Notes: generated by a model not told the origin, from the sequence alone. A stretch of 64,000 nt of DNA from an uncultured Chthonomonadaceae bacterium (GCA_963817895.1 CAWFQB010000004.1:832001-896000); one strand, 5' to 3'; counted from the stretch's first letter, positions 11,966 through 62,397 are shown. Program-made: numbers and translations.

Positions 11966-12029
11966 GGAGGTAGATAAGTAGATGGGTAGCCGGCATTTCT
12001 ACCATCTACCCATCTACTTATCTACCTCC
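11966..12029. repeat. 24-bp perfect inverted repeat built of GTAGATR-type 8-mers; possible bidirectional terminator
   Basis: ggaggtagataagtagatgggtag (11966-11989) pairs with ctacccatctacttatctacctcc (12006-12029), between the convergent VOC gene and queD. Confidence 0.85.
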
Positions 12030-12379
12030 CCTGTATATACACACCCACTGGTACACGTTTCCTGCACCACGATTTTACTGAGCAGGGGCAGGGTGGGGCC
12101 AAGTCGGTTCCATACCCAACGGGCAAGGTTTTCGCTCGTTGGGTTTTCCAGGCCTTCAATGTCATTGAGGTAGTTGTGGTCTAGCAGATCAAAGAGTGGC
12201 TGAAAGGCGGCTTTCAGGTCGGCAAAATCCATGACCCAACCTGTATGCGGATGAACCGGGCCACGCACATGCACTTCAATTCCGAACGAATGGCCGTGCA
12301 GACGGGCGCATTTGTGGCCGTCCGGCACATTGGGCAGACGGTGCGCGGCTTCAATGGTAAAGACTTTGTAGATTTCCAT
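12014..12379 (-). CDS. queD: 6-carboxy-5,6,7,8-tetrahydropterin synthase
   Basis: [49 protein letters not shown]. Confidence 0.95.
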
Positions 12380-12468
12380 ACCTCTATGATACCGCTTCCC
12401 CGCGAAAATCGGTTTCCTGTGAGGAAGTGAGGCGGCGGAAGTTCCTGTACGGTATGGAAGCGGAGGAT

Positions 12469-13323
12469 TTAAGAGGAAGCAGAAGCGTAAACGCCGTTGT
12501 AAACAAACTCGGCGGGGCCGGTCATCTGTATGGTTTGACTGGGCTGCCACGAAATGCTGAGTTCGCCGCCCTTGCTGGAAATGGTAACGGGTTTGTCGGG
12601 TGGAACCAAGCCTTTTACGATTGCCGCCACTGCGGATGCGCAGGCCCCGGTTCCACAACCCCACGTTTCCCCCGCGCCCCGTTCCCAAATGCGCAACTTC
12701 AAGCGCGACACGCCCTCACGCTCGCACCACATCAAACTGGTTCGTTCCGGGAACAACGAGTGGTGTTCCACCTGCGGACTGAGCGCGAAAAATTCCAGAT
12801 CGTTCGGCAAAGTCGGCACAAATGCCATTGTGTGCGTACTTCCCGTTGATAAAGCCGTAACAGTCAGAATTTGGCCGTCTTCCAACTCCAGCGGGTAATC
12901 CACAACCGGATTGAGCGCGACGCGCATGGGAATGTCCTGCGGCTCAAAACGCGGCAGTCCCATATCTACGCGAACCGCGTAAATCGTTCCTGCCCCATCG
13001 CGCAACACTTCTGCCGAACGAACGCCTGCCAGCGTCTGCACGTTCAGTATATCTGTTTGTACAATGCCGCGCTCTACCGCGAAACGCGCCAGACAGCGCA
13101 GGCCATTGCCGCACACATCCGGCGACCCATCCGGGTTGTACATCCGCATCAGAATGTCGGCAACAGGGGATGCATCCAGAACGAGCAGGCCGTCCGCGCC
13201 GACTCCCCGTTGTCGGTCGCACATCTCGACAGCCAGAGCGGGCCAGTTCTCTTTCCCGCGCCCATCCACGACCACAAAGTCGTTGCCCACGCCCTGCATT
13301 TTCGTAAACGGCACATCCGCCAA
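12469..13323 (-). CDS. dapF: diaminopimelate epimerase
   Basis: [42 protein letters not shown] start after a CAGGAG RBS. Confidence 0.93.
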
Positions 13324-13345
13324 ATTACACTCCTGAAAAATGCTT

Positions 13346-13494
13346 TCACCACAGAGGCACAGAGACACAGAGGTTTCACAGAGGAGAAAAGGAGAAAAGG
13401 AGAAAAGGAAAAAAGGAGAAATTAAACAATTCTTCTCTTTCTTTCCCTCTTCATTTCTCTGTGAAACCTCTGTGTCTCTGTGCCTCTGTGGTGA
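13346..13494. repeat. 38-bp perfect inverted repeat (CACAGAG units) enclosing an AGGAGAAA tandem tract
   Basis: tcaccacagaggcacagagacacagaggtttcacagag (13346-13383) has an exact reverse complement at 13457-13494. Confidence 0.92.
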
Positions 13495-13498
13495 GAGA

Positions 13499-14377
13499 TT
13501 AGCCTTTCAACGCTTCCGCGCCGCCAACGATTTCGGAAATTTCCCGCGTGATGCCGGCCTGCCGCGCCCGGTTCAATTGCAGGGTCAGCGTACTGATCAT
13601 TTTGCCCGCATTGTCGGTTGCGGAACTCATGGCGGTCATGCGCGAACCGTGTTCGCTGGCGGTGGCTTCCAGAATCGCCTGATAAACTTGTCCCTCCACA
13701 TAGCGCGGCAAAAGAGCGGCCAGCAGTTCGTCGGCGGACGGCTCGAAGATATAGTCTTCCTGTTCGCCGCTCTGAGTGGGGGTTGCTTCTTCCACTGTGG
13801 GCGTCTGGATGGGCAGCAATTGTACATCCATCGGCTTCTGCGTAATGGCGGTGTAGAAGCGGGTATACAGCAGGAAAAGCTGGTCTATCTCTTCAGTTTC
13901 AAACGCCTGCCGGACGATGCGGGTAATGTCTTTGGCTTCGGCATAGGACAGGCCGGTGTTGGGAATGGTGAATTCCTGCGCCACGTTGTAACCACGCCGT
14001 CGGAAGAACTGAATGCCTTTTTTGCCGACGAGATATAGCTTAACGCGGTCTTTGTCGTACTCTCGCAGCAATTCGTTGGCGCGGCGCAGCATGGCCGAGT
14101 TGTAGGAACCGGCAAGTCCGCGATCCGAGGTGACGATGAGAAAACCGATGTTGCGCGGCGTCCGTGAAGCGAGCAGGGGATGCTTGATTTCGCCGCCTAC
14201 TGCCGTTGCCAGACTGGTCATCATTTCGCGCATGGTTTCGGCGTATGGACGCGCCGCTTGTACGCGATCCTGCGCCTTTTTGAGTCGCGCCACCGCGACC
14301 ATTTTCATCGCTTTGGTAATCTGCTGAATGTTTTTGGCGACTTTGATCCGCTGTCGCACCTGTCGTATGGTTGCCAT
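13499..14377 (-). CDS. atpG: ATP synthase F1 gamma subunit
   Basis: NIQQITKAMKMVA, SDRGLAGSYN, SEHGSRMTAM, NRARQAGITREISEIVGGA. Confidence 0.97.
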   Translation of the reverse strand: MATIRQVRQRIKVAKNIQQITKAMKMVAVARLKKAQDRVQAARPYAETMREMMTSLATAVGGEIKHPLLASRTPRNIGFLIVTSDRGLAGSYNSAMLRRANELLREYDKDRVKLYLVGKKGIQFFRRRGYNVAQEFTIPNTGLSYAEAKDITRIVRQAFETEEIDQLFLLYTRFYTAITQKPMDVQLLPIQTPTVEEATPTQSGEQEDYIFEPSADELLAALLPRYVEGQVYQAILEATASEHGSRMTAMSSATDNAGKMISTLTLQLNRARQAGITREISEIVGGAEALKG

Positions 14378-14532
14378 ATCAAATCCTTGTCAAACTACGA
14401 ATGAAGTAAACTGCAAAATATCGAACCGCAAAGACGCAAAAGAAACCAAAGAGTAGCAATCACGCTACACGGTTCAGAATATGCTTACATGCGAATTGCT
14501 CAACTTTGCTTCGCATTTCATCTTCGGAAGCG

Positions 14533-14667
14533 TCAGAAAGCCGCATCCTCTACAAACTCACGTCCTCCAGCCATGTCAGGATGAGACGTAAGAATATGCC
14601 CGTTCCATGTGTGGTCGTGAAGGACGCAGGTACGCCCAAGCGGGTCAATGAGAGTTGTATCCGCCAC
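14533..14667 (-). pseudogene. possible truncated toxin-like ORF (RelE/PBECR-like N-terminus)
   Basis: GAGG RBS, then VADTTLIDPLGRTCVLHDHTWNGHILTSHPDM...AAF* (44 aa). The DPLGR...W.HI..HP.M pattern resembles small RelE/PBECR-like toxins. Confidence 0.35.
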
Positions 14668-14770
14668 TATTATTCTACCTCGTTTTGTCAGGAGTGGAGA
14701 AATGCCGCTTATCTACATGGTCGTAGTTCGCGTCTGATGCGCTACCAACTTTCTGACAGCAACTGCGCTT

Positions 14771-15340: not shown

Positions 15341-15486
15341 CGCTGCCGCTCCATCAACTGTCCACAGCAACCATCCTGCAAAAAATATTTGTGAAAAAGT
15401 GCCGAACAAAGCGAAAAACTCGAAACCTTCGCCTTACTCCTTCTGTCTACAAGATACAAACGTCTACCGGTAGCCTTTCCCCACAA

Positions 15487-15538
15487 GTTCCCCTTCTCCC
15501 AGGCTTTTTTGGGAGAAGGGGTTAGGGGTTGAGGGCTA
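15487..15538 (-). repeat. TAGCCCTCAACCCCTAACCCCTTCTCCCA...TGGGAGAAGGGGAAC palindromic repeat
   Basis: Arms near-identical to the copy at 21862-21943, with a different loop. Confidence 0.85.
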
Positions 15539-15803
15539 CTTATAATAGGTTCTAAACAGCCATGTGGCGGGACATTGCGAATTCGCAGTTCCTGACAACC
15601 TGACAACTAACAACCTGACCCGGAAGGGAGGCGCAAGAAGATGCCTGTACACACCCGTTCGCCTTAACACTTTCGAGGTCACGACGCCTCTTCTTAAAAA
15701 CTTGACACAACGAGACACTGGGCTGGAAGCGCTGCATTGCCAATATTTCGACGCTGTCTCTACATACTCTCTTTTTTCTGCATACCCATTGCCCAACGTA
15801 ATT

Positions 15804-17075: not shown

Positions 17076-18020
17076 GCGTGAAGTCTCCTTGCGAATCAGG
17101 TGGGTGGTATTTGGTGTTCGGTGTTCGGTGTTCGGTGTTCGGTTCGGCGATTGGGATGGTTCTGCTGTAAGTTCGTTTTCACCCTCAATGGTTTCGGCAG
17201 GGGATAGCGTCAGAGGCTGCGCGGCAATCTGAGCAACATCGCTTTTGCCCGGATCAACATCCGCGCCGGAATGAGCCTGTTCGGACTGTGTCATGCCAGT
17301 ATGCGCAGACGTGTTGGGCGCGGCATCCAGTTCAAGGTAACTGGCGCGGGCGGGAGGCAATTGCGGCGTTTGGGGAGATGCGACCGCTAATCCGAGATGC
17401 TGTTCCAGCGCGGCAAGCATCTGTTCGGCGTTCTGGTCATTATCAAGGGTTGGTTTTCCTGTGTCCTGTGTCCTGATGCCTGTTCCCTGTGCTGTTGTCG
17501 CCTGATTGCCTCGTGATGCGGTGACTTCTTCCCGCGCCTGCGCTTCCCGCGTCAGGTCAGCGATTTTACTGCTGGCGCGATCCCACAGGCTATCGGTTTC
17601 ACCCCCGCCGCCCGGTACATTAGCTTCCACCTGCGCGGCGGTAAACCGGGTATACCGCGCCTGTAATTCGTTGATGGTACGCAGCAGCGTGGCTTCGTCT
17701 TCTGGCAGGCGGATTTTGGCGGACTCGGCTTCCATTTGCGCCTGCGTCAACTGTGCGTCGCGTCCGCTCCAATTCTGCGGCAACGCGCGTTTGTTCCTGT
17801 TGTATTTCGTGCTGCAAGCCGGGGTTCTGCGCCCGTTCCGCCAGCGACTGCCGCGATCCAGTTCTGCGATTCGCTGTTCCAGCCGGGTCGCGTCCGCCTG
17901 AACTTTGTCGCGATACATCACGCGCAAAACGACGCTCTCGCGCAGGTCGCGCAAGGCGTCGCGTATTTCGGCCACTTGTTCACGAAGCGCCTGTTCCGGG
18001 GTTTGGCCGGGTTCGGGCAT
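17076..18020 (-). CDS. PspA/IM30-like coiled-coil region plus long linker, read through into the oxidoreductase
   Basis: Heptad-rich helical N-terminus (LREQVAEIRDALRDLRE...LEQRIAEL; DSLWDRASSKIADL...AQAREEV). Two compensating indels near 17760-17855 garble about 30 aa. Confidence 0.5.
17113..17145. repeat. (GGTGTTC)4 tandem heptamer inside a coding linker
   Basis: Four perfect units plus a partial unit; encodes PNRTPNTEHRTPN on the minus strand. Confidence 0.9.
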
Positions 18021-18032
18021 GGGGGAGCTCCG

Positions 18033-18119
18033 GGGAGTAGGTTGTAGGGAGTAGGACACTGCACAAGTTGAACAAGGCTTTTCCTACTCCCTACAACCTA
18101 CTCCCTACTCTCTACACTA
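18033..18119. repeat. TAGGGAG-heptamer hairpin (24-bp perfect IR) after the atpA stop
   Basis: gggagtaggttgtagggagtagga (18033-18056) pairs with 18082-18105. The repeat continues to the atpA TAG. Confidence 0.9.
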
Positions 18120-19821
18120 CGGCTTGAACTGCGCCTTAAACGCGGTAATGGCTTTCACGAGGCCGTCTTCCGTGTCTTTGTCCAGTTCTTTGGTGCGGCG
18201 CAATTTTTCCATGATGTCGGGGTAGCTTTCCGCCATGAACGGGTGGAACTGCTCCTCGAACTTGCGGATGGACGCGACGGGAATATCATCCAGAAAGCCG
18301 TTGTTGCCGGCATAGATGATCGTCACCTGCTGCTCGACGGGCATCGGATGGAAGGCGGGCTGCTTCAGCACTTCCACGAGCCGCAGGCCACGCTCCAACT
18401 GGTCGCGGGTCGCTTTATCAAGGTCGGACGCGAACTGCGAGAACGCCTGAACTTCGCGGAACTGCGCGAGTTGCAGGCGCATGTTGCCGCCCACTTTGCT
18501 GCCCTTCATTGCCGATACCTGCGCGGAACGTCCCACGCGGGATACCGAAATGCCGACGTTGATGGCGGGACGGACGCCCGAATAAAACAGGTCGGGTTCC
18601 AGGAAGATCTGCCCGTCCGTAATCGAAATCACGTTTGTCGGAATATACGCGGATACGTCCGAGGCCTGCGTTTCGATGATGGGAAGCGCGGTCAGGCTGC
18701 CGCCCGTTCCGGGAAGCATACGGATTTCCAGATCGTCCGCGTTGGGCATGGAAGCGAGTTCGGTTTTGGCGTGGTCGCGGCCTTCGCTGCTCTGGTAAAT
18801 TTTGCCGTCTACGCCCGTTTTCTCGCCGCCGTCCGCTTCCTTGTTCACGATGATGTAGTCTTCGCGGATTTTGGCAGGCGCGCTCCAGCAGGCGCGAATG
18901 GATGTAGAACACGTCGCCAGGATACGCTTCGCGTCCCGGCGGGCGGCGCAACAGCAGGGATACCTGGCGATACGCGACCGCGTGTTTGGAAAGGTCATCG
19001 TACACGACAAGCGCGTGCTGGCCCTTATCGCGGAAGTATTCGCCAAGCGTCGCGCCGGTGTAGGGCGCGATATATTGCAGCGGGGCGGGATCGGCGGCGG
19101 TGGCGGCTACGATAATCGTATAATCCAGCGCACCCGCCTCTTCCAGAATGTTGCGGACGTTTTGAACCGTTGTGGCTTTCTGGCCGATGGCGACATAGAT
19201 ACAGATAACATCGCCGCCCTTCTGGTTGATAATCGTGTCCAGCGCGACAGCGGTTTTGCCGATGCCACGGTCGCCGATAATCAACTCGCGCTGCCCTCTG
19301 CCAATCGGCACAAGGGCGTCAACGGCCTTCAAGCCCGTTTGCAGCGGCTGCTTCACAGGTTGGCGATCTACAACACCGGGCGCGCCCGCTTCGACATACG
19401 CATTCTGAGTGGTGATAATCGGACCTTTGCCATCCAACGGATCGCCGACAGCGTTGATAAGGCGGCCAAGCATGGCCTCGCCCACCGGCACTTCAATGAT
19501 CTTGCCGGTGCGTCGAACCGTCGTGCCTTCCTTAATTTGCGTGTCTGAGCCAAGAATGATCGCGCCGACGTTATCCTCTTCCAGGTTCAGGGCGAGGGCG
19601 CGAATGGAGGCTCCGTTTTCATCCGCGATGACGTTGTTGTCAACGTCCACGAATTCCAGCAGTTCCGATACCATGCAGTCCTTCAAGCCGTAAACGCGGG
19701 CAATACCGTCGCCGACTTGCAGCACGGTTCCCACGCCCACTTCGGCAAGCTGGTCGCGCTTGTTATATGTTTCGAGTTCACGCTCCAGAATGGAGGTGAT
19801 TTCTTCCGGGCGAATAGCCAT
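18117..19821 (-). CDS. atpA: ATP synthase F1 alpha subunit (apparent frameshift near 18878)
   Basis: [40 protein letters not shown]; the second frame gives [27 protein letters not shown]. Confidence 0.95.
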
Positions 19822-21188: not shown

Positions 21189-21315
21189 GTAGGGAGTAGG
21201 GAGTAGGGAGCAGGAAGTAGAAAAACCTGTTTTTTGCTTTTTAGCAGAAATCGTGGACGGACAAACGCCGTATTGTGGCTTTTCTACTCCCTGCTCCCTA
21301 CTCCCTACTCCCTAC
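21189..21315. repeat. GTAGGGA-heptamer hairpin (35/36-bp IR)
   Basis: 21189-21224 pairs with 21280-21315. The TAG stop of the b' gene is the first repeat unit. Confidence 0.92.
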
Positions 21316-21861: not shown

Positions 21862-21943
21862 TAGCCCTCAACCCCTAACCCCTTCCCCCATGTTGCGTAT
21901 TTCTGCTTCGCTTTGGAAATACGCTATGTGGGAGAAGGGGAAC
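21862..21943 (+). repeat. TAGCCCTCAACCCCTAACCCCTTC...TGGGAGAAGGGGAAC palindromic repeat inside an outer GCCGCAGTCCAA/TTGGACTGCGGC IR
   Basis: Same arms as 15487-15538. The loop carries an extra GCGTATTTC/GAAATACGC stem. Confidence 0.85.
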
Positions 21944-26005: not shown

Positions 26006-27418
26006 TTAGCGCGGCATGTAGACCGCTTTTTGCGCCGACGCTTTATTCTGAGACGCGGCTACGAGGGTTGTTAGTTTCGTCAATGTGGCGAGTTGCTGCT
26101 GCTGCGCCTGTTTTAGCGCAGCCAATTCCGCGTTCTGCTTTTGCAGGGCTGTTTTCAGCGTTGTAATTTCTGATCTCTGGTCTTCAGACTGATGGTGGGC
26201 TTTCTGAAGTTCGTTGAGCAGCATGGGCGTGAGCAGGTGGTAGTAGATGGTAAAGGGCTTGCCCTCTTTATCGTACTGCACGAGGTCAGGATAAACCTTT
26301 GCCACCTCTTCGGCAATCAGGCCGTATTGAAGCGCGTGGGCTCCCTTTTCCGCCGTGTCTTTGTATCGGAACGTAACGGGGCGCAGTTGCATCAGTTTGT
26401 CGCTGACATTGCCCATGTCCTGAATGGCGTCCTTGAAGCGGCGCGAAGAGGCAATTGTGCCGAGTTGCCCGTTCGCGTTGATGTAGACCGGGACGCCGCC
26501 GTTTGCCGTGACGCCGTTGATGCCCGCAATGTAGGCGGAATTTTGCAGACCGACTGTTCCGAGGCGAATAACTCCGGTTTCCCCTGTTGCGCCCGGATTG
26601 CCGATAGCGATGTTATTGTGGCCGGTGGTAAGCTTCTGGCCCGCGCCGAACCCTAACGCGACATTGTTATTGCCGGTCGTGTTGTTCAGGAGGGCGTAGT
26701 CGCCACTGGCCGTGTTGTAGGAACCCGACGTGTTGGAGGAGAGGGTATTCGCGCCGTTGGCAATGTTGTAATAACCCGTAGTGTTGGAGTAGAGGGCAGA
26801 GATGCCGTTGGCGATATTTTGTTCCCCGGAGATATTGGAGAAGAGAGCATAAGAACCGTTGGCCGTGTTGTAATTCCCGGTGGTGTTGGAGTTAAGGGCC
26901 TGATAACCAGTGGCGGTGTTGTTGAAAGCGGTAGTGTTGGAGATGAGCGCTTGACAACCATTGGCGGTGTTGTAATTTCCGGTGGTGTTGGACTGGAGAG
27001 CTAGACCCCCATTGGCCGTGTTGTAATAGCCGGTGGTATCAAGTTGAAGGGCTCGATAACCAGTGGCGGTGTTGCTGGAGCCATTGTTGGAGTAGAGGGC
27101 TTGTGAGCCATTGGCGGTGTTGGCACCACCGGTGGTGTTGGAGTAGAGAGCTTGAGAACCGTTGGCGGTGTTGCCGAAACCATAGATATTGGAGAGGAGG
27201 GCTTGAAAACCAGAGGCAGTGTTGTCATAGCCGATGTTGTTGGAGTTGAGGGCCTGGTAGCCAAGAGCTACATTAGAAGTTCTTGTGGCGGAGTTTGTTG
27301 ATCCGCCGGAAGCGAAAAAGGTTTGCTCATGCGAAATCAGCGGCACGACTAGCAGAGCGGATACAAGGGCGGCTTGCAGCAGGCCGGACCAAAACGGTTG
27401 GCGCGATTGGATGTTCAT
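26006..27418 (-). CDS. secreted NTAxG-repeat beta-solenoid protein with a C-terminal peptidase S74/intramolecular chaperone domain
   Basis: Signal peptide, about 15 14-aa repeats (NTANGxQALxSNTTG), SSRRFKDAI...LRPVTFRYK...YGLIAEEV, coiled-coil tail. Confidence 0.85.
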   Translation of the reverse strand: MNIQSRQPFWSGLLQAALVSALLVVPLISHEQTFFASGGSTNSATRTSNVALGYQALNSNNIGYDNTASGFQALLSNIYGFGNTANGSQALYSNTTGGANTANGSQALYSNNGSSNTATGYRALQLDTTGYYNTANGGLALQSNTTGNYNTANGCQALISNTTAFNNTATGYQALNSNTTGNYNTANGSYALFSNISGEQNIANGISALYSNTTGYYNIANGANTLSSNTSGSYNTASGDYALLNNTTGNNNVALGFGAGQKLTTGHNNIAIGNPGATGETGVIRLGTVGLQNSAYIAGINGVTANGGVPVYINANGQLGTIASSRRFKDAIQDMGNVSDKLMQLRPVTFRYKDTAEKGAHALQYGLIAEEVAKVYPDLVQYDKEGKPFTIYYHLLTPMLLNELQKAHHQSEDQRSEITTLKTALQKQNAELAALKQAQQQQLATLTKLTTLVAASQNKASAQKAVYMPR

Positions 27419-42427: not shown

Positions 42428-42964
42428 ACTAAGGCTTGAACGAAAGACGCCCCGGAAACAAACTCCGAAGTGCTGTGCCAGAGAGTTCTCCTCCCGACAC
42501 AACCCACAGTGATAGAAACATTAAAGTAGTCTGGAATGTTCAACGGCTGACGCTCTCAATGTTAGAACGTTAGCTTGCTGTTGATCCTTGAGAGTCGCGT
42601 GTGAAATTTTGAGTTTCGTATACACGTGCCATAAGTAACTTTACAAATGTGGAGAAATTCACTAAAGATGGGCCAGGTTTCTGCAAAGGCTGTTCGCAGC
42701 CGATGCAAAAATAATGTTCAACATCTGACTGCTTCGGCAGTCAGTTCGCATCAAGTTAAATTGATGGAGAGTTTGATCCTGGCTCAGGACGAACGCTTGC
42801 GGCGTGCCTAAGAAATGCAAGTCGAGCGGAAGCAGCAATGCTTTAGCGGCGAACGGTCGCGTAACACGTAAGCAACCTGCCCGAAAGACCGGGACAACAC
42901 TCCGAAAGGGGTGCTAATACCGGATGTGCCCACTCTCTTGCATGTGAGGGTGAGTAAAACGCGC

Positions 42965-43060
42965 AAAAAACAGATATTAGGTAGTAGATATTAGATATTA
43001 GGGAAAGCCCGGTTGGGTTCGCTCTAATATCTAATATCTAGTATCTCCTATCTGTTCCTG
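42965..43060 (+). other. intervening sequence/extension in 16S helix 10 (V2)
   Basis: About 95-nt hairpin with (TAGATAT)n/(ATATCTA)n arms at the h10 position. Confidence 0.85.
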
Positions 43061-43320
43061 TGGCGGCTTTTGGAGGGGCTTGCGGCCTATCAGATAGTTG
43101 GTGGGGTAACGGCCTACCAAGTCATCGACGGGTAGCTGGTCTGAGAGGATGGTCAGCCGGACTGGGACTGAGATACGGCCCAGACTCCTACGGGGGGCAG
43201 CAATTAGGAATCTTGTACAATGGGGGCAACCCTGATACAGCGACGCCGCGTGAGGGAGGAAGGCCTTCGGGTTGTAAACCTCTTTTAACCGGGAAGAAAC
43301 AAATGACGGTACCGGTGGAA

Positions 43321-43366
<46 letters not shown>

Positions 43367-43596
43367 GGCGAGCGTTGTCCGAAGTTACTGGGCGTAAAGC
43401 GCGCGTAGGCGGGTTGGCAAGTCCGCTGTGAAAGCCCGGCGCTTAACGCCGGAGGGTCGGTGGATACTGCCAGTCTTGAAGGTGCCAGGGGAAGATGGAA
43501 TTACCAGTGTAGCGGTGAAATGCGTAGATATTGGTAGGAACACCAGTGGCGAAGGCGGTCTTCTGGAGCACTCTTGACGCTGAGGCGCGAAAGCTG

Positions 43597-43630
<34 letters not shown>

Positions 43631-43713
43631 CAGCCCTAAACGATGGATACTAGGTGTCGGGGGTATCGACCCCCCCGGTGCCGCCGCTAACGCAGTAAGT
43701 ATCCCGCCTGGGG

Positions 43714-43777
<64 letters not shown>

Positions 43778-43877
43778 TGTTTAATACGTCACTAACCGTA
43801 GAACCTTACCAGGGTTTGACATGTGAGGCACCGGCATGAAAGTGTCGTTCCTAGCAATAGGACCTCAACACAGGTGT

Positions 43878-43943
<66 letters not shown>

Positions 43944-44194
43944 TCCTATGTTGCCAGCGAGTGAAGTCGGGAACTCTTAGGAAACTGCCGGGGTAACTCG
44001 GAGGAAGGTGAGGATGACGTCAAGTCAGCATGGCCCTTACATCCTGGGCTACAAACATGCTACAATGGACGGTACACAAAGGGATCCGAGACCGCGAGGT
44101 GGAGGCAATCTCAAAAATCCGTTCTCAGTTCGGATCGCAGGCTGCAACTCGCCTGCGTGAAGCCGGAATCGCTAGTAACCGCAGATCAGATAAG

Positions 44195-44242
<48 letters not shown>

Positions 44243-44280
44243 CTTGAGTTGTCTGCACCCGAAGTCGGTGGGGTAACCCG

Positions 44281-44373
44281 CAACTGTAGGTTGTTAAGGT
44301 TTGCGGGTTGTAGGTGGTTAGGGAAGCGTTCCCTAAAAGCTTAGAACCTTAGAACCCTAATCCCCTAGAGTTG
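44281..44373 (+). other. intervening sequence/extension at the tip of 16S helix 44 (V9)
   Basis: About 90-nt imperfect hairpin of degenerate 8-mers replacing the usual tetraloop between TAACCC and GGGAGCCAGCCG. Confidence 0.85.
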
Positions 44374-44412
44374 GGGGAGCCAGCCGCCGAAGGTGTGGGG
44401 AGCGAGAGGGAC

Positions 44413-44467
<55 letters not shown>

Positions 44468-45681: not shown

Positions 45682-48659
<2,978 letters not shown>

Positions 48660-49142
48660 ACTCTTCTGTTCGCAAGAGACGCGGTTGTGGCCGGTTTGCC
48701 GCTGTGCCGTCCTCCCGGCTTTCCCACAAGCGTAAGCAGTGGAGACAAGCGCCTTTTCCGAACCAAGCGAAAGCAAGGGCGGGCAAGGTGGGAAGACGAC
48801 GCAAACAGCAGCAGAGCCGCAGGCGCAGACAGCGCGGACGAAACGAGCTTACAAGCGAGCGCAACACAGAACGTACAGACAACGCGCAGGAGCAATCCTG
48901 CACGAACACAGTACAACACAAACAACGTTCAGCTAAGGAACCAACGTCCCTTATTTGAACAACCCGCATCTTGCACACACTTCGGTTCTTCCAAGTCCCG
49001 CTTCACGGCGCGGCTTGGAAGAACGTTCCGTTGTAGAACCCTTTTCGCATGGTTGAATATTGCCCCTGTTGAGGCGTGTTCTCAAATGCGCAGTTTGCAT
49101 CCAGACTTGGCACTCTCCCGACTTGTGGGAGTGTGCGCCGGT

Positions 49143-53253: not shown

Positions 53254-55073
53254 AATCATAGATGAGAAACGTCGTCGTTTGCGCAGTCGGCTGCATTTGA
53301 CGCAGGCAGGCGACAAGCGACTGCTTGGAATCATTGTAACCGCCGTAAACCTGCGTTGCGCTTGCCGCCAGGTACTTTCCCCGTAAAGTGGCTTGTACTT
53401 CCTGTACGTCGCGCGCCGTTAATGCCTCATGCGGTATGTCCGTGAAAATTGTATGCGCCGGATCGTAACCGAAATACCACAAACACAACGGTTTGTCAGT
53501 ATGCGCCCCCTGCCACTGCCGCAATTCCAACAATCCCTGTCCCCAATCGTAGTTTGAATCGCTGACAAGCAGATACCCCTTACGCGGATCGCCCCACAAA
53601 CCATTGGTATACGCCAATCCATTCGGCCACCATTGAACAGCCGCAAAGGTTGTCCATACAAGCCCCAAACATGCGACTAATAACGGCAACCGCTCTCGTA
53701 CACGCTGAAATAGTGTAGTTTTCCATGCGTGGTCTGCACCTTGCGCTTGCCGCATCTGGCTCCCCTCTCTTAGCGCGTTGCGCGGCAAGGAGAGGGATTG
53801 GGGGTGAGGTTCCTCCTCTTCCCTTGCCGCGCAGACAGCCGACGCCGACAACCCCACAATGCCCATGCAAATTGCCGGAAACAGAAAACGAACGCCGATT
53901 TGCACATGATAGGTAATACTGAGCGCAAACTGAATCAGGGCGCACAGACACGCCCAATTGAGCAGGTAGCGGCGGCGACAAACAGCAATCACAACAGGCA
54001 GCAACAGCAGGGGCAGGGACAATTTAACCGTCAGCAGTATCGGAAAGTACCACCACACATAATGCGGCCCGGAGTGTCCGAGCAGATACCAGCCCTGCCC
54101 GTGACTGTTATGCTGAATTTGCCGAACAACGCCGTCCGCCGCGTTCGCATATAATCGAAGGTGATCCGCCAGCCAGACGAAAACCGTTCTTTTAGCCCCT
54201 GTCGACAAAGAATGGGCGCGGCGAACCAGTCCCGCGTAAGGCAGCCAATCCGTGCCGCAATAAACAAACACAAGCAACGTCCCCACACCAACAATCCAAC
54301 TCATGTCTTTCCACAAAGTTGGGTGTTCGGTGTTGGAATTGTCGATTGCCGATTGAGGATTTTCGATTGAGGATTGAGTTCTCTCCTTTTCTCCTTTTCT
54401 CCTCTTCTCCTCTTCTTCCTCCTTTTCCTTTTTCCCTTTTCCCTTTTCCCTGTACTGGATTGCCAGCATACACAAAATGCCGAAGACGAGGCCGGAAGCT
54501 TTACACAAGACCAGCGCGGCGAACCAGAGGGTAGGTAAGGCGACCCGCCGCTTCCAATCCTTGCCGCGCCCGTCCTGAAAATGGTAGCAAAAGGCGAGCA
54601 GGCAGGCGGATACGGAAATATCGGTAGTGGCAAGCGTGGCGTGGGCAAGCAGATTGGGTTCGCAGGCAATCAGGCCGACCGCAAGCCGCCCCGCCCATGC
54701 GCCGCCCAATTTACGCCCGATGAGACGGGCATAAATCAGCAGCAGCCACCAGAAAACAAGGGTTCCCATTCGCGCCCAATGCAGCGGCGTCGCCAGATCG
54801 GTAAACGGATCGAACCGCGTATGGCTGAAGCGTTCCCATAAAAACAGCGGTAGCGTTTCCACATCAACGGGCAGGGGCATGGTTCCCAAAAGCAGACAGA
54901 CCCTGATGGCTAAAATCTCGCCAGCAATGCAGCCCCCGCTCCACATAAATCCACTCGTCAACAGTTCCGCTCAGATGCCGCGAAGCCGTCAGACACCAGA
55001 CGGTCGAAAAAAGGCCCCATGCGAAAAACCATAGCCAATCGCCCGTATTTTTGTATCTTTGCGTGATTTGCAT
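53234..55073 (-). CDS. GT39/ArnT-like GT-C glycosyltransferase (apparent frameshift near 54895)
   Basis: TVDEWIY, EPNLLAHATLATTD, WWYFP, QIGVRFLFP, SDSNYDWGQGL. Confidence 0.8.
53761..53810 (-). repeat. CCTCACCCCCAATCCCTCTCC...GAGAGGGGA palindrome inserted in frame
   Basis: Encodes PHPQSLSLPRNALREG inside the GT39 protein. Confidence 0.75.
54318..54451 (-). repeat. composite in-frame tandem-repeat insertion
   Basis: (AGGGAAA)n, (AGGAGAAA)n, (AATCnnn)n and (AACACCn)n run back to back. Confidence 0.85.
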
Positions 55074-55512
55074 AATTGCGTATGAAGAAGGAATTGTTTA
55101 TACGAATGGAACACACCCTGAAAGCAAAGCGAACTATCTGCACTGTAATTCGCCACAGGGCAACGAAGTCCCTGCTGTGACAAAAATGAAGAATCCAGTG
55201 TCAGTAAATATGGGGAAGCCTCTTCAAACATCCATTACAGGCGATTATATGCTGGGATGGAAGCGTGTCAGGCAGTAAAAATCGCAAGTCTTGATTTTTG
55301 TGCGGCGTTGTGATAATATGAGGAGGAATTCCGCTCCCCTTTGGTGAACTATTGCATTATCATGCAAAAACGCGGCGTACCCCCTTGCCGTGACCTGAAC
55401 ACGAATAACATATAACCGTCGAAACGAAGAACAAAGACGTTCCGCTTCGCTCTGCGTTCGCTCGTTGCCCCGGAACCTTTGTAGAAATTATCCCCGGAAA
55501 GGGAAGTCGTCC

Positions 55513-58500
55513 ATGCCTTCTGGCAAGAGTTTTTATGCGCGTGTGTCTGCGAGTGTCCTTGTTGCCTCACGTCGCCTGCTTCTGCTGACCCTGTTGGTTA
55601 TGACTGTTTTCATCGTCAGCGGCGGGCGCGGAAGTTGTGCCGACGTACCCCCAAAGTTTCAGGAGGCGTATAAAAAGTTCAGCAGTCAGGTTTCCACCGC
55701 CAATTTGCGGTCTACGGTCAACGCGCTGTCCGGTTTCGGCTCCCGCATTGCCGGCTATCCCGGCGACAAACAGCGGCGGATTACGTTTCGCAGCAGTTGC
55801 AATCCCTCGGCCTGCAAAACTTCCAGACGGATACCTTCGCCGTCACCGTTCCTTACGACCTCAGCGTAGACAATCCGGCAGAGGGCGCATTTGCCCAAAT
55901 CGTGGAGGGAACAGGAACACCCAACACCCAACACCCAACACCCGACACCCCTCTCCGCATGTACCCGCTCTGGCCGAACCTTGTCCGCACTCCGACCCTG
56001 CCCGCCAATGGCCTGACAACCAAACTCATCTATGTCGGTGACGGCAAACTGCACAACTTCAACGGCAAGGATGTGGATGGCAGCGTTGTGATGGTGGATT
56101 TCAACTGCGCGGGGGAGTGGCTGAACGCGCCGCGATTGGGCGCGCGGGCCGTGATCTTTGTCGCGCCCAACAGCACCATGCGCGGCGAAGCGGAAGCCAA
56201 GTTCGTTTCGATCCCCATTGCAATACCCCGATTTTACATGACCAAGCAGGATGCCGCGCCTCTGCTTGCCGCCTGCGCGAGTGGTCAGCCCCCAACCGTG
56301 CGCCTGACCTGCAACATGCCGTGGAAAACGCGCTCCGCCCGCAACTTTGTGGGCGTGATACCCGGAACCGACCCCAAACTCAAAGACCAGATCATTGTCG
56401 TGCAGTCGTATTACGACTCGACAAGCGTTGTGCCGGCTCTGGCTCCCGGCGCGGATACGACGTGCGGGTTTGCCGCGATGTGCGAGATGATCCGCGCCTT
56501 CAAAGCCAATCCGCCCGCCCGCACCATGATGTTCGTGGCGACAAGCGCGCACTTTCAGGGACTTGCAGGGCATACGCGAGTACGTGGAAAAGCATATTGA
56601 CTCGTGGATGCCGTCCAGTTTCTTCAACCGCAAGGCCGAAACACCCCCGACCATTTACCTGTGGGCCGGGTTGGACATGACCAGCCAGACTCGCAGTTTC
56701 GGCATCTTTTATAAAGGATGGTTTTACGATTACCGCGAGGATATTCAGGGCCGGTTCAGCGACATTGCCCGCGTGTGTCGCGAAAACGCCGAAAAAGTGG
56801 GAACCACGCTCGGCTTCGATTCCAAACGCTATTTCAACGACGGCGTAAATCCGGTTGACGGCAAGAACTGGCGCAACTTCATTCCCGGCAAGCCCGCGTT
56901 CGACTCGGAAGCCGTCACGATGGCGGGCGGAAACGGCGTGACGTTTGCCAGCACGGATGACAGCCGCGCCCTTGTGGATACGCCCTTTGATACCGTAGAT
57001 AAAGTCAATATCGCCAATCTCGCGCAGCAGTGCCGTTTGCTCAACTGCTTGATGTGGCACATCGTCACGGATACGAACGCGCAGGGCGACATCAACGCGC
57101 AGCGGATGCCCATTACCGACCCATCCAAATGGTCGCGCATGGCGCTTCAGGGCGGTTTCGCCACCTTGCAAGGCCGCGTTCAGATGTTCAACCCCAAGAA
57201 ATCGTTCGTTGCCAACGCCGATCCAAAACTCGCCAACAGCCTTGTCGTCGTGCGTAACCGCAACAAGTCGTTTATGGGCGTTCGGGGCAACATGGTGCAG
57301 CGAACCCAATGGACGCTGCCCGACAGAATCGATTCCATACCACTCAACCCGGACGGTATGCCGTCCCGTACCAATGCGGACGGCGACGCGCTGGATCAGA
57401 AACAACAACCCGGTTCCCCCTTCCAACTTCTTCGCGTTTCACGGCGTCGCGCCCCTGACCGCTTACGGACAGAACAAGCCTGCCCGCTTAGGCGCGTACC
57501 ATCTGGATGACCGCGACAATATTCCCGACCAGACCGACCCGACCGGCAAGAAAACGCTCGTCAACAATCTGCGCGGCGAGATAGATTACGCGCCCGATTT
57601 AGGGACGCAGGGCGCGAAGTACATTCCGCTCGACGTGATGGTGACGACGGCTACCAAAGAAACGCCCGTTATCGTGTTCCGCTGCGTCCCGACCGCCATT
57701 TATGACCTTGTGGATCAGCAGTCGCTCCGCGCCCTGACTTCGGTTGACGTGTACGATGGCGAAAGCAACGGCGAACCGCGCATGTTCGGTTTTGCCATTG
57801 ACCCGCAGGACCCTTCGCTTGTCGGTTCGTATGTGGAAGACGTTGCCGTGCTGTTTTCGCAACCCGGCAGCCGCCTGAAAATCGCCATGAGCAGCGGACC
57901 GGGCGCGATACGCCTGCTCCTCGTCAACTCGCAGTACGACCCGTCCGACCCGTTCAACAAGCAGGGCAAATCGCCCAACCCGGATGGCATCGGCTACCTT
58001 GTCGCGGGCAACCCCAAAGACCAGCAGAACGCCGACCTGCTCGGCACGTCCGGCGATTTGAAGTACAACGAGGCGCAGGAGATTGCCCGTTCCGGCGCGA
58101 TTTACGATACGGCTCTGCACGTCGCCGAAGACATGTGGAAACTGGACGACGCCCGGATGCAGCGGCTGGCGAAGTACAAAATTCTGAACATGAACGGCAA
58201 GGAGGGCATCTCCGACCTGCACCGCAGCGCGATGAAGGCGATTGAGAACTCCTACAAAGCGCGTGACGCCAAAGATTGGGAACGCTTCGATTCCGAGTCC
58301 CGCGCCGCATGGGGCTACGAATCCCGCGCCTACCCGGACGTGCAGACAATGGCGCTGGATGTGGTCAAAGGCGTTATCTTCTACCTTGCCCTGCTGTTGC
58401 CGTTCGCGTATTTTATGGAACGCCTGCTGTTCGGCTTCTTCGACCTGAAGCGTCAATTAGGGGCTGCGTCGCTGATCTTTATCTTCATCTTCCTTGTGTT

Positions 58501-60443
58501 TTCGCAGATACACCCCGCGTTCGACATTCTGCAAAGCAGTCCGATGATCGTGCTGCTGGCCTTCATCATGCTGTCGCTGTCGTGCATCGTTATCGGCCTG
58601 ATTTCCGGTAAGTTTGAAGAGCAGTTGAAGCAGATGAACCAGAGTTCGGGCGGCGTTCACAAGGCCGACATCGGGCGCGTGTCCGTTGCGGTTGCGGCCT
58701 TTAACTTAGGCATCTCCAACATGCGGCGGCGCAAAGCCCGCACGTTCCTGACCTGCGCCACGCTCGTGCTGCTGACGTTCACAGTTCTGTCGTTTACGTC
58801 CGTCGTGCAATCGCTGCGCTTCAATCAGGTTCCCGCGCCCTCCGATCACGGCCCGCGCTACAACGGCATTATGATTCGCACCGCGCTGTGGGACCCCTTG
58901 CAGGAACCCGCGTACCGCCTGCTTGCCGACGAGTACGGACGCGACCACGCGGTTGCGCCCCGCGCATGGTTCTTCGGAACGCAAATGGGCGAGCAGTCGT
59001 TCCTCAACCTGAAACGCGCCGACAAATCCTACGACGCCAAAGCCCTGTGCGGCCTGTCCCCGGAAGAGGTGAAACTGACCCATCCCCAGGACGCGCTCGA
59101 ACCCGGCGGACGCTGGTTTATGCCCGGTGACACCTATGTTGTGATTCTCCCCGATACGATTGCCTCCGTCCTGCGCGTGGACAACAAGGACGTTGGCACG
59201 GCGAAAGTGACGTACAGCGGCGTGGAATACACGGTCATCGGGATTCTCAACTCGCAGAAACTCAAAGACCTTGCCGACCTTGACAATGAAATCATCACGC
59301 CCGTTGATTTCATCGCCATGAACAAGCAGAACCGGGGCGGCGGGGGCGGCGACACGGGTTTCAAAGAGTACACGCATCTGGAACCGGATCAGGTATTCTT
59401 TGTGCCGTACCAGACAGCGACAAATCTTGGCGGCGAACTGCGCTCCATCGCCATTGACTTCGGCAACCCAAAATCGGTATTGGAAGACCTGAAGCCCCTG
59501 ATGCACCGGCTTGGCCTGAACCTGTACGCGGGGCAGATTATCCAACCCGGAAATAGACGGGCCGACGCGGGGGCACATTGACCGCTTCTCGTCCATTGCG
59601 GCCACCAACTCGCACGGCATGGAACTGGTTTTCTTCCCGATTCTGATTGCCAGTATGATCGTTCTCAATACGATGCTCGGCTCCGTGTTCGAGCGCGTCA
59701 AGGAAATTCATATTTTCTCGTCCATCGGACTGGCCCCTTCGCACATCGGGATGTTGTTCATTGCCGAAGCGCTTGTGTATGCCATTCTCGGCTCCGTGCT
59801 TGGCTATCTGCTCGGCCAGTTCACCAGTAAAGTTCTCGTGTTCTTCGGCTGGCTGCCCGACCTGTACCTGAACTTTTCCAGCACGAGCGCGGTTATGACG
59901 ACGCTGATTGTGGTTGCGGTCGTGCTGTTGTCCACGCTTTACCCCGCCCGCAAAGCGGCGGAAGTGGCCTCTCCGACTTCGGACCGAACCTGGAAAGTGC
60001 CGGAACCGGACGGCGACCACTGGAAAGTTCCCCTGCCGTTCGCGGTTACAGGCGATCAGGCGGCGGGCATGAACAGCTTTTTGGGCGAGTGGTTCCGCGC
60101 CTATGAGGAATACAGCATCGGCGACTTTGTGACGCAGGGCGTTGTCAGTGAAACGTTCGACGCCGAGTACGGCATGGGATACCGCATCAAGAGCATGGCG
60201 TGGCTGGCTCCGTTCGATTTAGGCGTATCTCAGCGCGTGGCGATTGAAACTCTGCCCACGCCAACGACCGACGTATACGAAATTTTCCTGCTCATAGACC
60301 GCGAATCCGGCGACATCACCAATTGGAAGCGCGTCAACCGCCGCTTCTTGAACACCCTGCGCAAGCAGTTCCTGATCTGGCGCACACTAAAGCAATCCGA
60401 CCGTGACCGCTACGTTCATCAGGAAGAGACGACAGTGGCTTAA
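55513..60443 (+). CDS. giant PA/M28-like + FtsX/MacB-type permease (about 4 apparent frameshifts near 55770, 56570, 57420, 59560)
   Basis: Signal peptide, M28-like fold (QSYYDS, APGAD, TSAHFQGL), SNMRRRKARTFLT, VLNTMLGSVFERVKEIHIFSSIGLAP, YPARKAA. Confidence 0.78.
55916..55950 (+). repeat. (AACACCC)n heptamer in frame
   Basis: gaacacccaacacccaacacccaacacccgacaccc encodes TPNTQHPTPDTP. Confidence 0.85.
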
Positions 60444-60460
60444 AGGCTGCAATCCAATAG

Positions 60461-60510
60461 GCCGGGTATTGAAAATACCCGGCAGGAAAGCGCAAACGTC
60501 CTAGGGACGC
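60461..60510. other. REP-like/terminator hairpins
   Basis: GCCGGGTATT-GAA-AATACCCGGC perfect stem plus a CGTCC/GGACG stem just after the permease stop. Confidence 0.5.
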
Positions 60511-60667
60511 GAATTCATGCTTATTGTGATAGGCTCTAAAAGGCCGCAACTCAATATTTCTCAGCAACCTACGCGCTGCTTCTCACGCCGCCTGCGTTGC
60601 GCAGGCCACTCAGAAGCGGACATCAACCCATAGTTTGATCGTGACGCGGGATGAGAAGGAGAACGAC

Positions 60668-61081
60668 ATGAACGATGGTGGAGGACTCATAGGAAGTTTG
60701 CTCGGTTTGGGCATCATTGGGGCGATACTTGCGGTTGTGTTGATAATTTTTGTGGGACTGGTCATTGTTTTCGGCCTCCCTCAGCATACCTGCGCTCAGA
60801 AGTTGGGCCATAGCAAACCCTGGATGGCTTTTCTGCCGATTGCGCATGTGGTTCAACTGTTTAATCTCGCGGATCTGTCCGGTTGGCTGGTACTGCTTGG
60901 CTTTGTACCCGTCATAGGATGGATAGCCATCGTGTTGCTTGCCATCTATTCATGGATGAAAATCGCGGAGAAAATAGGACATCCGGGTTGGCTGGCAATT
61001 CTGATGATAATACCAATACTTGGCATCGTCATTCCGTTCTATATCGCGTATGGCACTCCTACGGAAGCGCAGCGCTACTAA
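60668..61081 (+). CDS. DUF5684-like membrane protein
   Basis: KLG..PWMAFLPI, KIG.PGWLAILMIIP; 3-4 TMs. Confidence 0.7.
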   Translation: MNDGGGLIGSLLGLGIIGAILAVVLIIFVGLVIVFGLPQHTCAQKLGHSKPWMAFLPIAHVVQLFNLADLSGWLVLLGFVPVIGWIAIVLLAIYSWMKIAEKIGHPGWLAILMIIPILGIVIPFYIAYGTPTEAQRY

Positions 61082-61135
61082 AGAGCGTTTTTCGCAACGC
61101 TGTTCGTGTGTTGAAAACACCCGGAGCCGCAATAT

Positions 61136-62290
61136 ATGAGTATTCTGTCACGTTCCTTGCTAATGTTATTCCTGCTGCCACTGCCGGCTATATCTCACGC
61201 CGACAAAGCGGGCGACGCGCTGCTGCAAAAGTGCTTTGAGGCGACAACCAACGCTTCCACACTGGAGGCCGCGTTTACGCATCAGCATAAGGAAAAGGGG
61301 CAGATGCAAACTCAAACCGGAACATTGCTGCTGCAAAAGCCCAATCGGGCGCATATTGTCGTCAACAGCCGCAAGGGGCAGGGCAGTAACATCGTTATCA
61401 ACTCGGACGGCAGCAAGTTCACCACATACACGTATGCGGACAACGCTTTCGCGCAGGAACCGTCCGACCCGAGCGGCGGCAATGTCGCCCGCAACAACAT
61501 CAACGAAACGAAAATTTTCTTTTTTCCCGATTACCTGAACCGCCTGCGCTCCATGGCAACGGGGGCGCGTATTACCGGGGCCGTATCCGTCGGCAACACG
61601 ACCTGTAAAACGCTGGAAATTGCTGGCCTGCCGCAAAAACTGAAATTGTACGTGGGCAGTGACGGCATTATTCGGGGTATGTTGGTGGAAGGCGCGGATT
61701 TCCGCGATGAAACGCATCTGACGGACGTGAAAATCGGCGCAAGTTTAACGCAAACCGCCTTCAACTGGAAACCGCCCAAAGGCGCGAAAACAGTAGCGCA
61801 GGTCGCGGCCAGCGAAGCCGCGCAGGAACAGGCGGCGGCGCAGGGAAGGCAAGCCGTATCCCTCCTGCCTGTCGGCAAAACCGCGCCGGACTTTACGCTT
61901 CCTCTGGCAACGGGCGGCACGCTGACGCTTTCACAGGAACTGAAGAAGAACAAAGTAACCCTTGTCAACTTCTGGGCATTGTTTTGCGGGCCATGCCGCG
62001 AAGAGTTGCCCCACTTGAGCAAAATGGCGGCGCAGTACCACAGTCAGGGGTTCAATGTCGTATCCGTCAATACGGCGGGAGACACGCCACAGGCGATCAC
62101 CAAAATGTTCGGGGAAAAGCAGATCAATCTGCGCTCCCTCATAGACAAAGGCAGCGTATCGGGAAAGTACGGCATTCAGGCCATCCCGACCAACTACGTG
62201 CTGGACCCGAACGGCAAAATTTTAGCGACGTTTGAAGGTTTTGATGAGAACGGTATTCGGCAGGCGCTGGCAAAGGCCGGAATAAAGTAG
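61136..62290 (+). CDS. LolA-like (DUF2092) + TlpA thioredoxin fusion
   Basis: Signal peptide, LLLQKPNR...SDGSK...FNWKPP (LolA-like), APDFTL, NFWALFCGPCREELP, IPTNY. Confidence 0.8.
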   Translation: MSILSRSLLMLFLLPLPAISHADKAGDALLQKCFEATTNASTLEAAFTHQHKEKGQMQTQTGTLLLQKPNRAHIVVNSRKGQGSNIVINSDGSKFTTYTYADNAFAQEPSDPSGGNVARNNINETKIFFFPDYLNRLRSMATGARITGAVSVGNTTCKTLEIAGLPQKLKLYVGSDGIIRGMLVEGADFRDETHLTDVKIGASLTQTAFNWKPPKGAKTVAQVAASEAAQEQAAAQGRQAVSLLPVGKTAPDFTLPLATGGTLTLSQELKKNKVTLVNFWALFCGPCREELPHLSKMAAQYHSQGFNVVSVNTAGDTPQAITKMFGEKQINLRSLIDKGSVSGKYGIQAIPTNYVLDPNGKILATFEGFDENGIRQALAKAGIK

Positions 62291-62397
62291 GGAGTGGGGA
62301 GTGGGGAGTAGGGGAGCCTTGTTTGCGGATTGCGTTGTAGCAAAACCCGCAAAACTTTGTGTCAAGGCTACTCTCTACCCCCTACTTCCTACTCCCC
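62287..62397. repeat. GTRGGGA-heptamer imperfect hairpin starting at the TlpA stop
   Basis: gtaggga gtgggga gtgggga gtagggg agccttg ... caaggct actctct accccct acttcct actcccc. Confidence 0.8.

Follow-up and report, generated by a model that had tools for sequence, protein, structure and literature searches.

Tandem-heptamer and -octamer hairpins of an uncultured Chthonomonadaceae bacterium as probable derivatives of gene-bearing cassettes

Tandem words of seven or eight nucleotides have been described from several bacteria. Here we analyze such repeats in a 64,000-nt stretch from an uncultured Chthonomonadaceae bacterium (GCA_963817895.1 CAWFQB010000004.1:832001-896000; hereafter the window, meaning the whole stretch), where they form hairpins within rRNA genes and at gene ends and run as single arms through reading frames. 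Familiar examples of related elements are the cyanobacterial short tandemly repeated repetitive (STRR) heptamers, small dispersed repeats, and the palindromic elements of Rickettsia reading frames; we know of no protein associated with STRR or Rickettsia elements, and we liken them to the present repeats by description, not by sequence. In Coxiella burnetii, the 23S rRNA intervening sequence (IVS) lies at the helix-45 site and has tandem GACAGAT heptamers before its S23p gene; in the relevant passages of the published account, RNase III excision is shown and the authors call the origin of the IVS unclear (PMC4990558). The passages on repeats in three further papers describe GGGAATC heptamers in Xanthomonas and Nostoc (PMC4692102), TAACTGA repeats in Beggiatoaceae (PMC4679880), and paired hepta- and octanucleotide sites in Geobacter metallireducens (PMC2700814).

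We regard the hairpins as probably gene-less, non-autonomous derivatives of cassettes in which an IVP or a GxxExxY gene lies between tandem arms, renewed by break-and-copy from donor arms. Comparisons of aligned loci show insertion at stop codons and rRNA helix tips, copying of whole elements, reoccupation of sites, and exchange of single arms. The assembly containing the window (G000; 7.48 Mb, 14 contigs, 81% complete) was compared with two congeners, G001 and G002, and with other relatives, including G005, G009, G013, and G023. Comparisons with G002 cover 1.63 of about 8 Mb; unit counts cover 432 kb of G001 and 100 kb in each of four other genera.

Hairpins of the window and their genome-wide family

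A first-pass annotation, made from the window alone, had listed eight hairpins; all eight are present, each predicted to fold into a long stem (−42 to −96 kcal/mol). Three lie, as it held, within rRNA genes (16S, 42761–44464, or 23S, 45682–48661), and the other five at the ends of genes, including two that separate atp genes. The tandem arms it reported stand, with the correction that the units at 11966 (GTAGATRR) and 13346 (CACAGAGR, nested AGGAGAAA) are octamers and that the hairpin at 44281, a family member, is degenerate and imperfect. The in-frame single-arm tracts at 17113, 17457, 54338–54451, and 55916 do translate through in three proteins, and they occupy protein loops that vary among orthologues. 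The elements, with strand where assigned, are as follows.

11963..12030: hairpin separating two convergent stop codons, its arms made of GTAGATRR octamers
13346..13494: composite hairpin, atpG and dapF on either side, with outer CACAGAGR arms and nested AGGAGAAA arms
17113..17143, minus strand: in-frame single arm of AACACCG units (PNTEHRTPN) in the linker of a GFO/IDH/MocA fusion protein
17457..17491, minus strand: in-frame degenerate arm, ACAGGAC-type, in the same fusion protein
18033..18105: TAGGGAG/TAGGTTG hairpin at the atpA stop, belonging to a 22-copy loop family
21189..21315: TAGGGAG hairpin between two b-subunit genes of the atp operon, with the upstream stop within an arm
42969..43056, plus strand: TAGATAT hairpin inserted in 16S rRNA
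44282..44372, plus strand: degenerate hairpin in 16S rRNA
46961..47050, plus strand: TAGGGAT hairpin at helix 45 of 23S rRNA, about 1164–1184 in E. coli numbering
47656..47659, plus strand: empty 23S tetraloop in G000
54338..54451, minus strand: in-frame composite tract of a PMT_2-like membrane protein, with G-rich (AGGGAAA, AGGAGAAA) then C-rich (AATCnnn, AACACCS) arms
55916..55950, plus strand: five AACACCC units forming an in-frame single arm within a loop of a PA/M28-domain protein
62290..62396: TAGGGAG/TGGGGAG hairpin, the first unit of which provides the stop codon of a redoxin gene

The genome-wide tandem- and inverted-repeat scan that the annotation had proposed found arrays and hundreds of hairpins with this architecture. 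G000 contains 1,173 arrays of period 7 and 506 of period 8, whereas block-shuffled sequence (5.19 Mb, scaled to 7.48 Mb) yields about 4 and 1. After merging, 976 of 2,064 arrays have an inverted partner, 837 of them within 150 bp. A strict hairpin caller, which recovers 5/8 window hairpins and so gives a lower bound, called at least 543 (medians: length 109 bp, arm 31, loop 47, arm identity 0.94). The G-rich arm is 5′ in 531/543, and adjacent arrays of different families obey the same order—G then C in 248 cases, C then G in 1—so that composites and single arms belong to the same design. Arms hold 3–5 units in 398/480, and only 77/406 internal deviations are mirrored between the two arms of a hairpin. 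Slippage-generated simple repeats were rejected on the small number of genome-wide unit families, the inverted partners, and the polarity; fold-back copying of one arm was rejected as the main route on the scarcity of mirrored deviations. Capture of loops from elsewhere in the genome was likewise set aside: only 14/341 match elsewhere, and mostly to arm-like or loop-family sequence.

Placement is biased toward stop codons, on gene-position statistics that rest on our own rough gene calls. The 512 intergenic hairpins comprise 413 between co-directional, 70 between convergent, and 29 between divergent genes, against 839 convergent and 836 divergent among 6,157 background pairs; there is thus no enrichment between convergent genes (70/512 vs 839/6,157). 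Of 114 hairpins in long co-directional spacers, 64 are no more than 25 nt from the stop and 23 are close to the start, the expectation being about 20 for either end. The stop codon adjoining a hairpin is TAG in 207/363, compared with 25% overall. The annotation's proposal that the elements target RNA-tolerant sites gains from this bias (64 vs 23 of 114), which favors some targeting, although targeting and selection are inseparable here. Outside called hairpins lie 935 period-7/8 arrays, 421 of them inside predicted genes and mostly of units that are stop-free on the coding strand. Terminator-like T-tracts are scarce: five or more T within 8 nt follow the right arm in 33/543, and five or more A precede 44 left arms. 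Rho-independent terminators were ruled out on this scarcity and on the lack of convergent-gene enrichment.

An assembly artefact as the source of the tracts was rejected on comparative grounds: the second rRNA copies of G000 bear the same inserts, identical or one base different, and G002, assembled independently, has near-identical arms at 13346. The assembly does contain frameshifts; atpA, for example, is split over two reading frames (window 18117–19821), and other genes look frameshifted too, as around 55465–57510. These are probably long-read indels.

Cassettes with IVP and GxxExxY genes

Larger copies enclosing four-helix-bundle, GxxExxY, or DUF559 genes had been suggested. For the first two families this is what we found: in G000, 2/2 TIGR02436/PF05635 (IVP) genes and 4/4 GxxExxY genes, among them the one at C1:43915, lie between inverted arms. 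DUF559 genes are instead flanked by a different, non-tandem palindrome, and they and the Y1 transposase genes were dropped as partners, since the palindromes flanking each are of other kinds. Palindromes flanking two DUF559 genes are similar to a separate family in the window (15491–15530, 21865–21940) with a CCCTTCTCCC/GGGAGAAGGG core and 315 occurrences in G000; this family may represent a third cassette class.

Both IVP genes of G000 lie between protein genes, not in rRNA. One, at C1:1459254, has arms of the same octamer unit family as the hairpin at 11963..12030; the other, at C2:440314, has arms like those at 44281. Among relatives we scored the best 16 of 37 PF05635 matches and the best 23 of 30 PF13366 matches. 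Inverted arms, G-rich 5′ and then C-rich 3′ of the gene, were present at 14/16 IVP and 20/23 GxxExxY loci and at 0/300 random intervals. The period was 7–8 for IVP and mostly 9–10 for GxxExxY. The idea that all copies derive from one system is refined here: there are two arm classes, period 7–8 with IVP and period 9–10 with GxxExxY, and the two proteins are unrelated.

Among homologues of one GxxExxY protein from many phyla, arms occur at 50/69 loci (11 of 80 were dropped for short flanks), mostly with the same GACAGGATT-like word, which indicates that word and protein travel together; the arm words of close IVP homologues are related but different. Period-7 arrays number 157 per Mb in G000, 303 in G002, and 21 in G001, with none in 100 kb from each of four other genera. 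G001 lacks any PF05635 match and is poor in 7/8-mers, but it has 9/10-mers and six matches to GxxExxY.

The predicted GxxExxY structure (predicted local distance difference test score, pLDDT, 92) has a PD-(D/E)xK fold with E76 and K78 invariant and D66 near-invariant; the top match in a fold search had Z 8.6 and root-mean-square deviation 2.6 over 94 aligned residues. Hjc-type resolvases appear in that list only at Z 5.5–6.7, level with many others, and we claim no cruciform specificity. On this modeled fold, GxxExxY is the obvious best candidate for a cutter. IVP has a solved relative, 2GSC, which is described as a pentamer in the passage concerned (PMC4990558). Its match to the Avd model NF033474 is weak (21.8 bits vs a cut-off of 80; E 1.7e-4). 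IVP more likely binds the arms, whose 3–5 units would suit a pentamer.

A scan for arm-bracketed open reading frames (ORFs), which missed 2/6 known cassettes, yielded 24 candidates from G000 and 10 from the 1.63 Mb of G002. Judged by eye, with no Pfam scan, these revealed no further tandem-armed small-gene family; the clean small ORFs in G000 are IVP and GxxExxY. An ORF within AGGGTTTT arms at C2:121357-122591, presumably insertion-sequence-like, is probably a later insertion into a hairpin loop. The single RVT_1 gene of G000 (503 aa, C6:132948-133580) shares a contig with neither IVP gene, and no arms were noted in its vicinity. It adjoins a 663-aa gene whose ends we take to be SWIM- and BRCT-like. 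A diversity-generating retroelement was rejected: RVT_1 is unlinked, the NF033474 match is weak, and there is no reverse transcriptase (RT), template, or variable repeat beside the cassettes.

Turnover at shared sites and a proposed mechanism

The rRNA copies are, on alignment with relatives, lineage-restricted stem-loop insertions that replace helix tips, as rRNA IVSs do. The 16S insert at 42969, in what we take to be the helix-10 region, is absent in 13/13 other-genus relatives having anchors; it is TAGGCAT-type in G002, and G001 has a non-tandem insert. The insert at 44282, presumably the tip of 16S helix 44, is absent in G001 and 8 other-genus relatives and is TGATGAA-type in G002; its right arm in G000 resembles the right arm of the IVP cassette at C2:440314. 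The 23S insert at 46961 has TAGTCAG arms in G002 and TAGGGAG-type arms in G001 and is absent in G005 and G013. At 47656–47659, in place of the plain tetraloop of G000, G002 has an AGGGAAC-armed hairpin and G001 a non-tandem insert. The annotation's link to rRNA IVSs holds in that the 23S insert lies where the Coxiella IVS does, at helix 45; the arm of that IVS, in the published description, has tandem GACAGAT heptamers. The inserts here (about 90–100 bp) contain no PF05635 gene, unlike an S23p-type IVS. The stems are probably removed by RNase III or tolerated as expansions.

Several other structured RNA regions vary in length. The helix-44 region measures 138 nt in one G002 16S copy and 76 nt in another, a deletion variant or assembly collapse. 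An enlarged 23S region at window 45990–46030 has AGGGCAC-type arms in G002 and varies between G001 operons. RNase P RNA is 443–446 nt in G001 (C2:5449023-5449465) and G002 (C46:28064-28509) vs 356–364 nt in two other genera, which suggests a hairpin-sized insert in the congeners; a search of G000 found no RNase P RNA. tmRNA showed no size increase.

Empty orthologous sites were found, as had been anticipated: the rRNA sites are empty in other genera, and gene-junction and cassette sites differ in occupancy between G000 and G002. No target duplication is seen at clean rRNA junctions, including the G002 tetraloop replacement, in agreement with the first-pass annotation; outside rRNA, the G002 flanks (83.5% identity) are too diverged to fix junctions. 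This absence bears on the possibility that the hairpins are MITEs (miniature transposable elements with inverted repeats) or REPINs driven by an unrecognised transposase elsewhere in the genome. The scattering of complete copies, the nesting of elements, and the pairing of arm sequence with protein do resemble the REPIN-RAYT relation as set out in passages of PMC3116915, and G000 has three Y1 transposase genes. Tandem arms, however, occur at 0/3 of these PF01797 genes, which are flanked by other, non-tandem palindromes. No transposase-encoding element sharing the hairpins' inverted repeats was found in G000, and exchange of a single arm with the loop or gene retained is unlike a cut-and-paste outcome. 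We consider this explanation highly improbable.

Sites are retained and their units mostly are not. Of 105 G000 hairpin sites anchored on both sides in G002, 98 are occupied there by arrays: 87 tandem hairpins and 11 arrays with unmatched arms, the others being 4 with other sequence and 3 empty. Of 471 conserved gene junctions, 105 bear arrays in both genomes and 287 in neither; 15 have them only in G000 and 64 only in G002 (odds ratio 31). Yet among the 87 G002 hairpins only 7 have the same unit and 13 are one edit away; the repeat-unit caller is noisy, and a few more sites keep their unit family than these counts state. At shared sites the units of the two genomes are separated by fewer edits (2.51) than in permuted pairs (3.32), and spectra are species-specific: per Mb of G000 vs G002, TAGGCAT stands at 0.1 vs 28 and TACGAGA at 23 vs 0.

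The window illustrates this replacement. TAGGCAT hairpins occupy the 18033, 21189, and 62290 sites in G002; G001 has a TTGTTGT-type hairpin at the first and a plain short hairpin at the second, and the third is empty in G009. At the site of 11963..12030 G002 has a TAGTCAG hairpin. At 13346 G001 has a period-10 hairpin and G009 none. The in-frame tracts behave likewise: G002 has AAAATCG-type units at 17113..17143 and a different mix at 54338..54451, and no repeat occurs at the 55916..55950 site in G001, G002, G005, or G013.

Elements are also copied whole or altered in part. The G002 elements at the 18033 and 21189 sites have one common loop in opposite orientations, so whole elements are copied, and one loop family is found at 22 loci, 18033 included, with at least six arm units. 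At C4:186688 the loop was kept and both arms changed from 7- to 8-mer; in an orthologous GxxExxY cassette of G000 and G002 the gene and right arm are kept and the left arm is new. Loops align in the same orientation between the two genomes in 4/79 cases, compared with 33–39 of 79 expected by simulation at the observed 34% third-position divergence and with 24/55 ordinary spacers.

At orthologous loci, gene-bearing cassettes and gene-less hairpins replace one another. Of the three IVP cassettes of G002, two lie opposite G000 hairpins that belong to other families and have no gene, and one lies opposite an empty site. An empty site is also the counterpart of one G002 GxxExxY cassette, and the G000 IVP cassette on C1 faces a gene-less hairpin in G002. 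The description of the hairpins as ORF-less relics is right as to their lack of genes, and "relics" is too weak: sites are reoccupied and arms overwritten. Opposite a G000 IVP cassette, G002 (C24:82671-83578) has a two-gene module, one ORF of which is presumably MazF-like, and then a lone TAGGCAT right arm.

Such fixity of position could also reflect regulatory hairpins, whether terminators, sites for RNase III or stability, or sites bound by proteins, that are selected by the host and refreshed by slippage and gene conversion, with the small genes as passengers or readers. The strong retention between G000 and G002 and the positions within operons such as atp fit this account; regulatory roles have been proposed in print (PMC4679880; PMC2700814), and 83% site conservation between two Xanthomonas species is given in a passage of PMC4692102. 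Against it, few hairpins are followed by a T-tract (33/543), convergent genes show no enrichment, other genera have the same operons without hairpins, and the same arms occur at the tips of rRNA helices and in loops of proteins. A donor in trans is needed, moreover, for units to sweep the genome and for cassettes and hairpins to swap. We judge host selection as the source improbable.

Under the derivation from cassettes that we favor, the parental form would be a G-rich tandem arm, a gene, and a C-rich tandem arm, the gene encoding either an IVP/Avd-like protein (7–8 nt units) or a GxxExxY PD-(D/E)xK nuclease (9–10 nt). A break, we infer, would arise at a stop-codon region, a helix tip, or an existing hairpin, made by GxxExxY as the best candidate or by a host structure-specific nuclease. 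Copying from a donor arm would then run inward at each free 3′ end, beginning with the G-rich strand, and rejoining of the ends would follow as in abortive gap repair, a process known from eukaryotic transposons. One donor would yield a perfect hairpin, two a chimera, repeated rounds nested arms, and a full copy movement of the gene. The IVP pentamer may bind 3–5 units of its own arm family and promote them as donor, and selection would purge stop-containing arms from reading frames. Inward copying from donors at both break ends, followed by rejoining, would account together for the polarity, for chimeric, nested, and single arms, and for the missing duplication.

The writing of arms from RNA is a related but distinct possibility: an Avd-like IVP pentamer would hold arm RNA while a host polymerase or RT writes G-rich units on both 3′ ends, telomerase-like, with loops as filler. 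It suits the strict G-then-C polarity, the independence of the arms (77/406 deviations mirrored), the 3–5 units per arm in 398/480, and the bias to stop codons and rRNA helix tips. It also draws on the IVP match to the Avd model, weak and under cut-off at E 1.7e-4, and on the published finding that Avd binds RNA with its RT (10.1101/2023.10.23.563531). Non-periodic multi-unit arm patterns and loops are nonetheless copied faithfully between loci, needing a long template, and the sole RVT_1 match in G000 is the unlinked 503-aa protein. We consider RNA-templated end-healing unlikely. Complex arm patterns copied between loci, in arms that are not simple mirrors, favor a long donor over a short reiterated template.

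Several observations weigh against derivation from cassettes by break-and-copy. An IVP match occurs in G005 and in G023, yet 100 kb of each shows no 7/8-mer arrays, and the five commonest G000 units lack a resident IVP gene of that unit in an assembly 81% complete. IVP is without known catalytic activity, and the 7/8-mer class has no nuclease or polymerase assigned. Three GxxExxY cassettes are vertically conserved between the congeners. Simulation at 45% divergence with 5% indels aligns 6/79 loops, and fast in-place decay may thus yield the low alignability. Finally, most loops are unique (400/442 singletons) and not traced to cassette ends.

Two further repeats in the window stand apart. A 240-bp repeat at 15552–15790, with short CCTGACAA-type units, has 47 BLAST matches in G000 and many in G002, and 51-bp tandem repeats in a Peptidase_S74-domain protein (26713–27253) are unrelated to the hairpins.

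Comparison with known systems

The Coxiella IVS shares with these elements the helix-45 site, terminal inverted repeats, a tandem heptamer arm, and the PF05635 family, as far as its published passages describe it. Here the inserts in rRNA hold no gene, occur in 16S helices as well, and have units that vary from congener to congener; they are a small part of a set whose hundreds of copies lie also at gene ends and within proteins. The Xanthomonas/Nostoc, Beggiatoaceae, and Geobacter repeats are similar in having about four units, frequent inverted pairs, the G-rich strand just past stops, depletion between divergent genes, and intragenic copies. In the relevant passages they are interpreted as G-quadruplex or regulatory, whereas most units here cannot form G-quadruplexes, and those passages mention no IVP/GxxExxY link and no unit replacement at retained sites. 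Supplements of PMC2700814 and PMC4692102 may list neighboring genes that bear on novelty. In the literature within our scope, which left aside most subscription papers and supplements, no report beyond the Coxiella IVS links tandem arms to IVP or GxxExxY.

STRR and Rickettsia elements offer two parallels: heptamer arrays at the ends of genes and within structured RNAs, and in-frame insertion into protein loops. The Avd accessory of diversity-generating retroelements belongs to a related four-helix-bundle family, through the weak NF033474 match; the cassettes differ in lacking an adjacent RT, template repeat, or variable repeat. Homing, in which an encoded nuclease would cut the empty allele and repair would copy the element in, has a candidate nuclease in GxxExxY on its predicted fold and residues; IVP is not a nuclease family.

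The nearest working analogue is REPIN-RAYT. In the parts of PMC3116915 concerned, non-autonomous inverted doublets insert into or beside existing elements, and each of their families goes with a rare gene that has those repeats on either side, as also found here. The differences are that arms here are tandem words and not repetitive extragenic palindromic (REP) sequences, that the linked genes are not Y1 transposases, and that single arms are exchanged. The window itself has a REP-like element (60454–60545; 22 BLAST matches in G000, many in G002) whose core resembles, by eye, the palindromes around the Y1 transposase at C5:223662; the two are likely a REPIN-RAYT pair.

The broadest reading, somewhat short of probable in our estimate, is a so far undescribed kind of selfish DNA that would need no transposase to spread and would instead rewrite the ends of DNA: small Avd-like or PD-(D/E)xK proteins would recognize their own tandem word and direct its copying, possibly from RNA, into breaks where stop codons, the tips of rRNA helices, or rival hairpins lie. 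Unit families would sweep a genome and overwrite each other at sites that stay fixed, and one process would give rise to rRNA IVSs, the bacterial heptamer excess, and protein loops coded by repeats. If so, rRNA IVSs, the excess of bacterial 7-nt tandem repeats, and the two large protein families TIGR02436 and TIGR04256 would have one origin; each protein would come with a predicted binding word, making its function testable; and a sequence-writing or targeted-conversion activity would reshape hundreds of gene ends and protein loops per genome. Newness as a class depends on the inferred mechanism, and the parts—heptamer arrays, inverted pairs, stop-codon bias, IVSs—have each been published separately. 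The features tested here fit no described mobile-element family, and the main addition, as read from aligned congeners, is the measured overwriting of units at retained sites.

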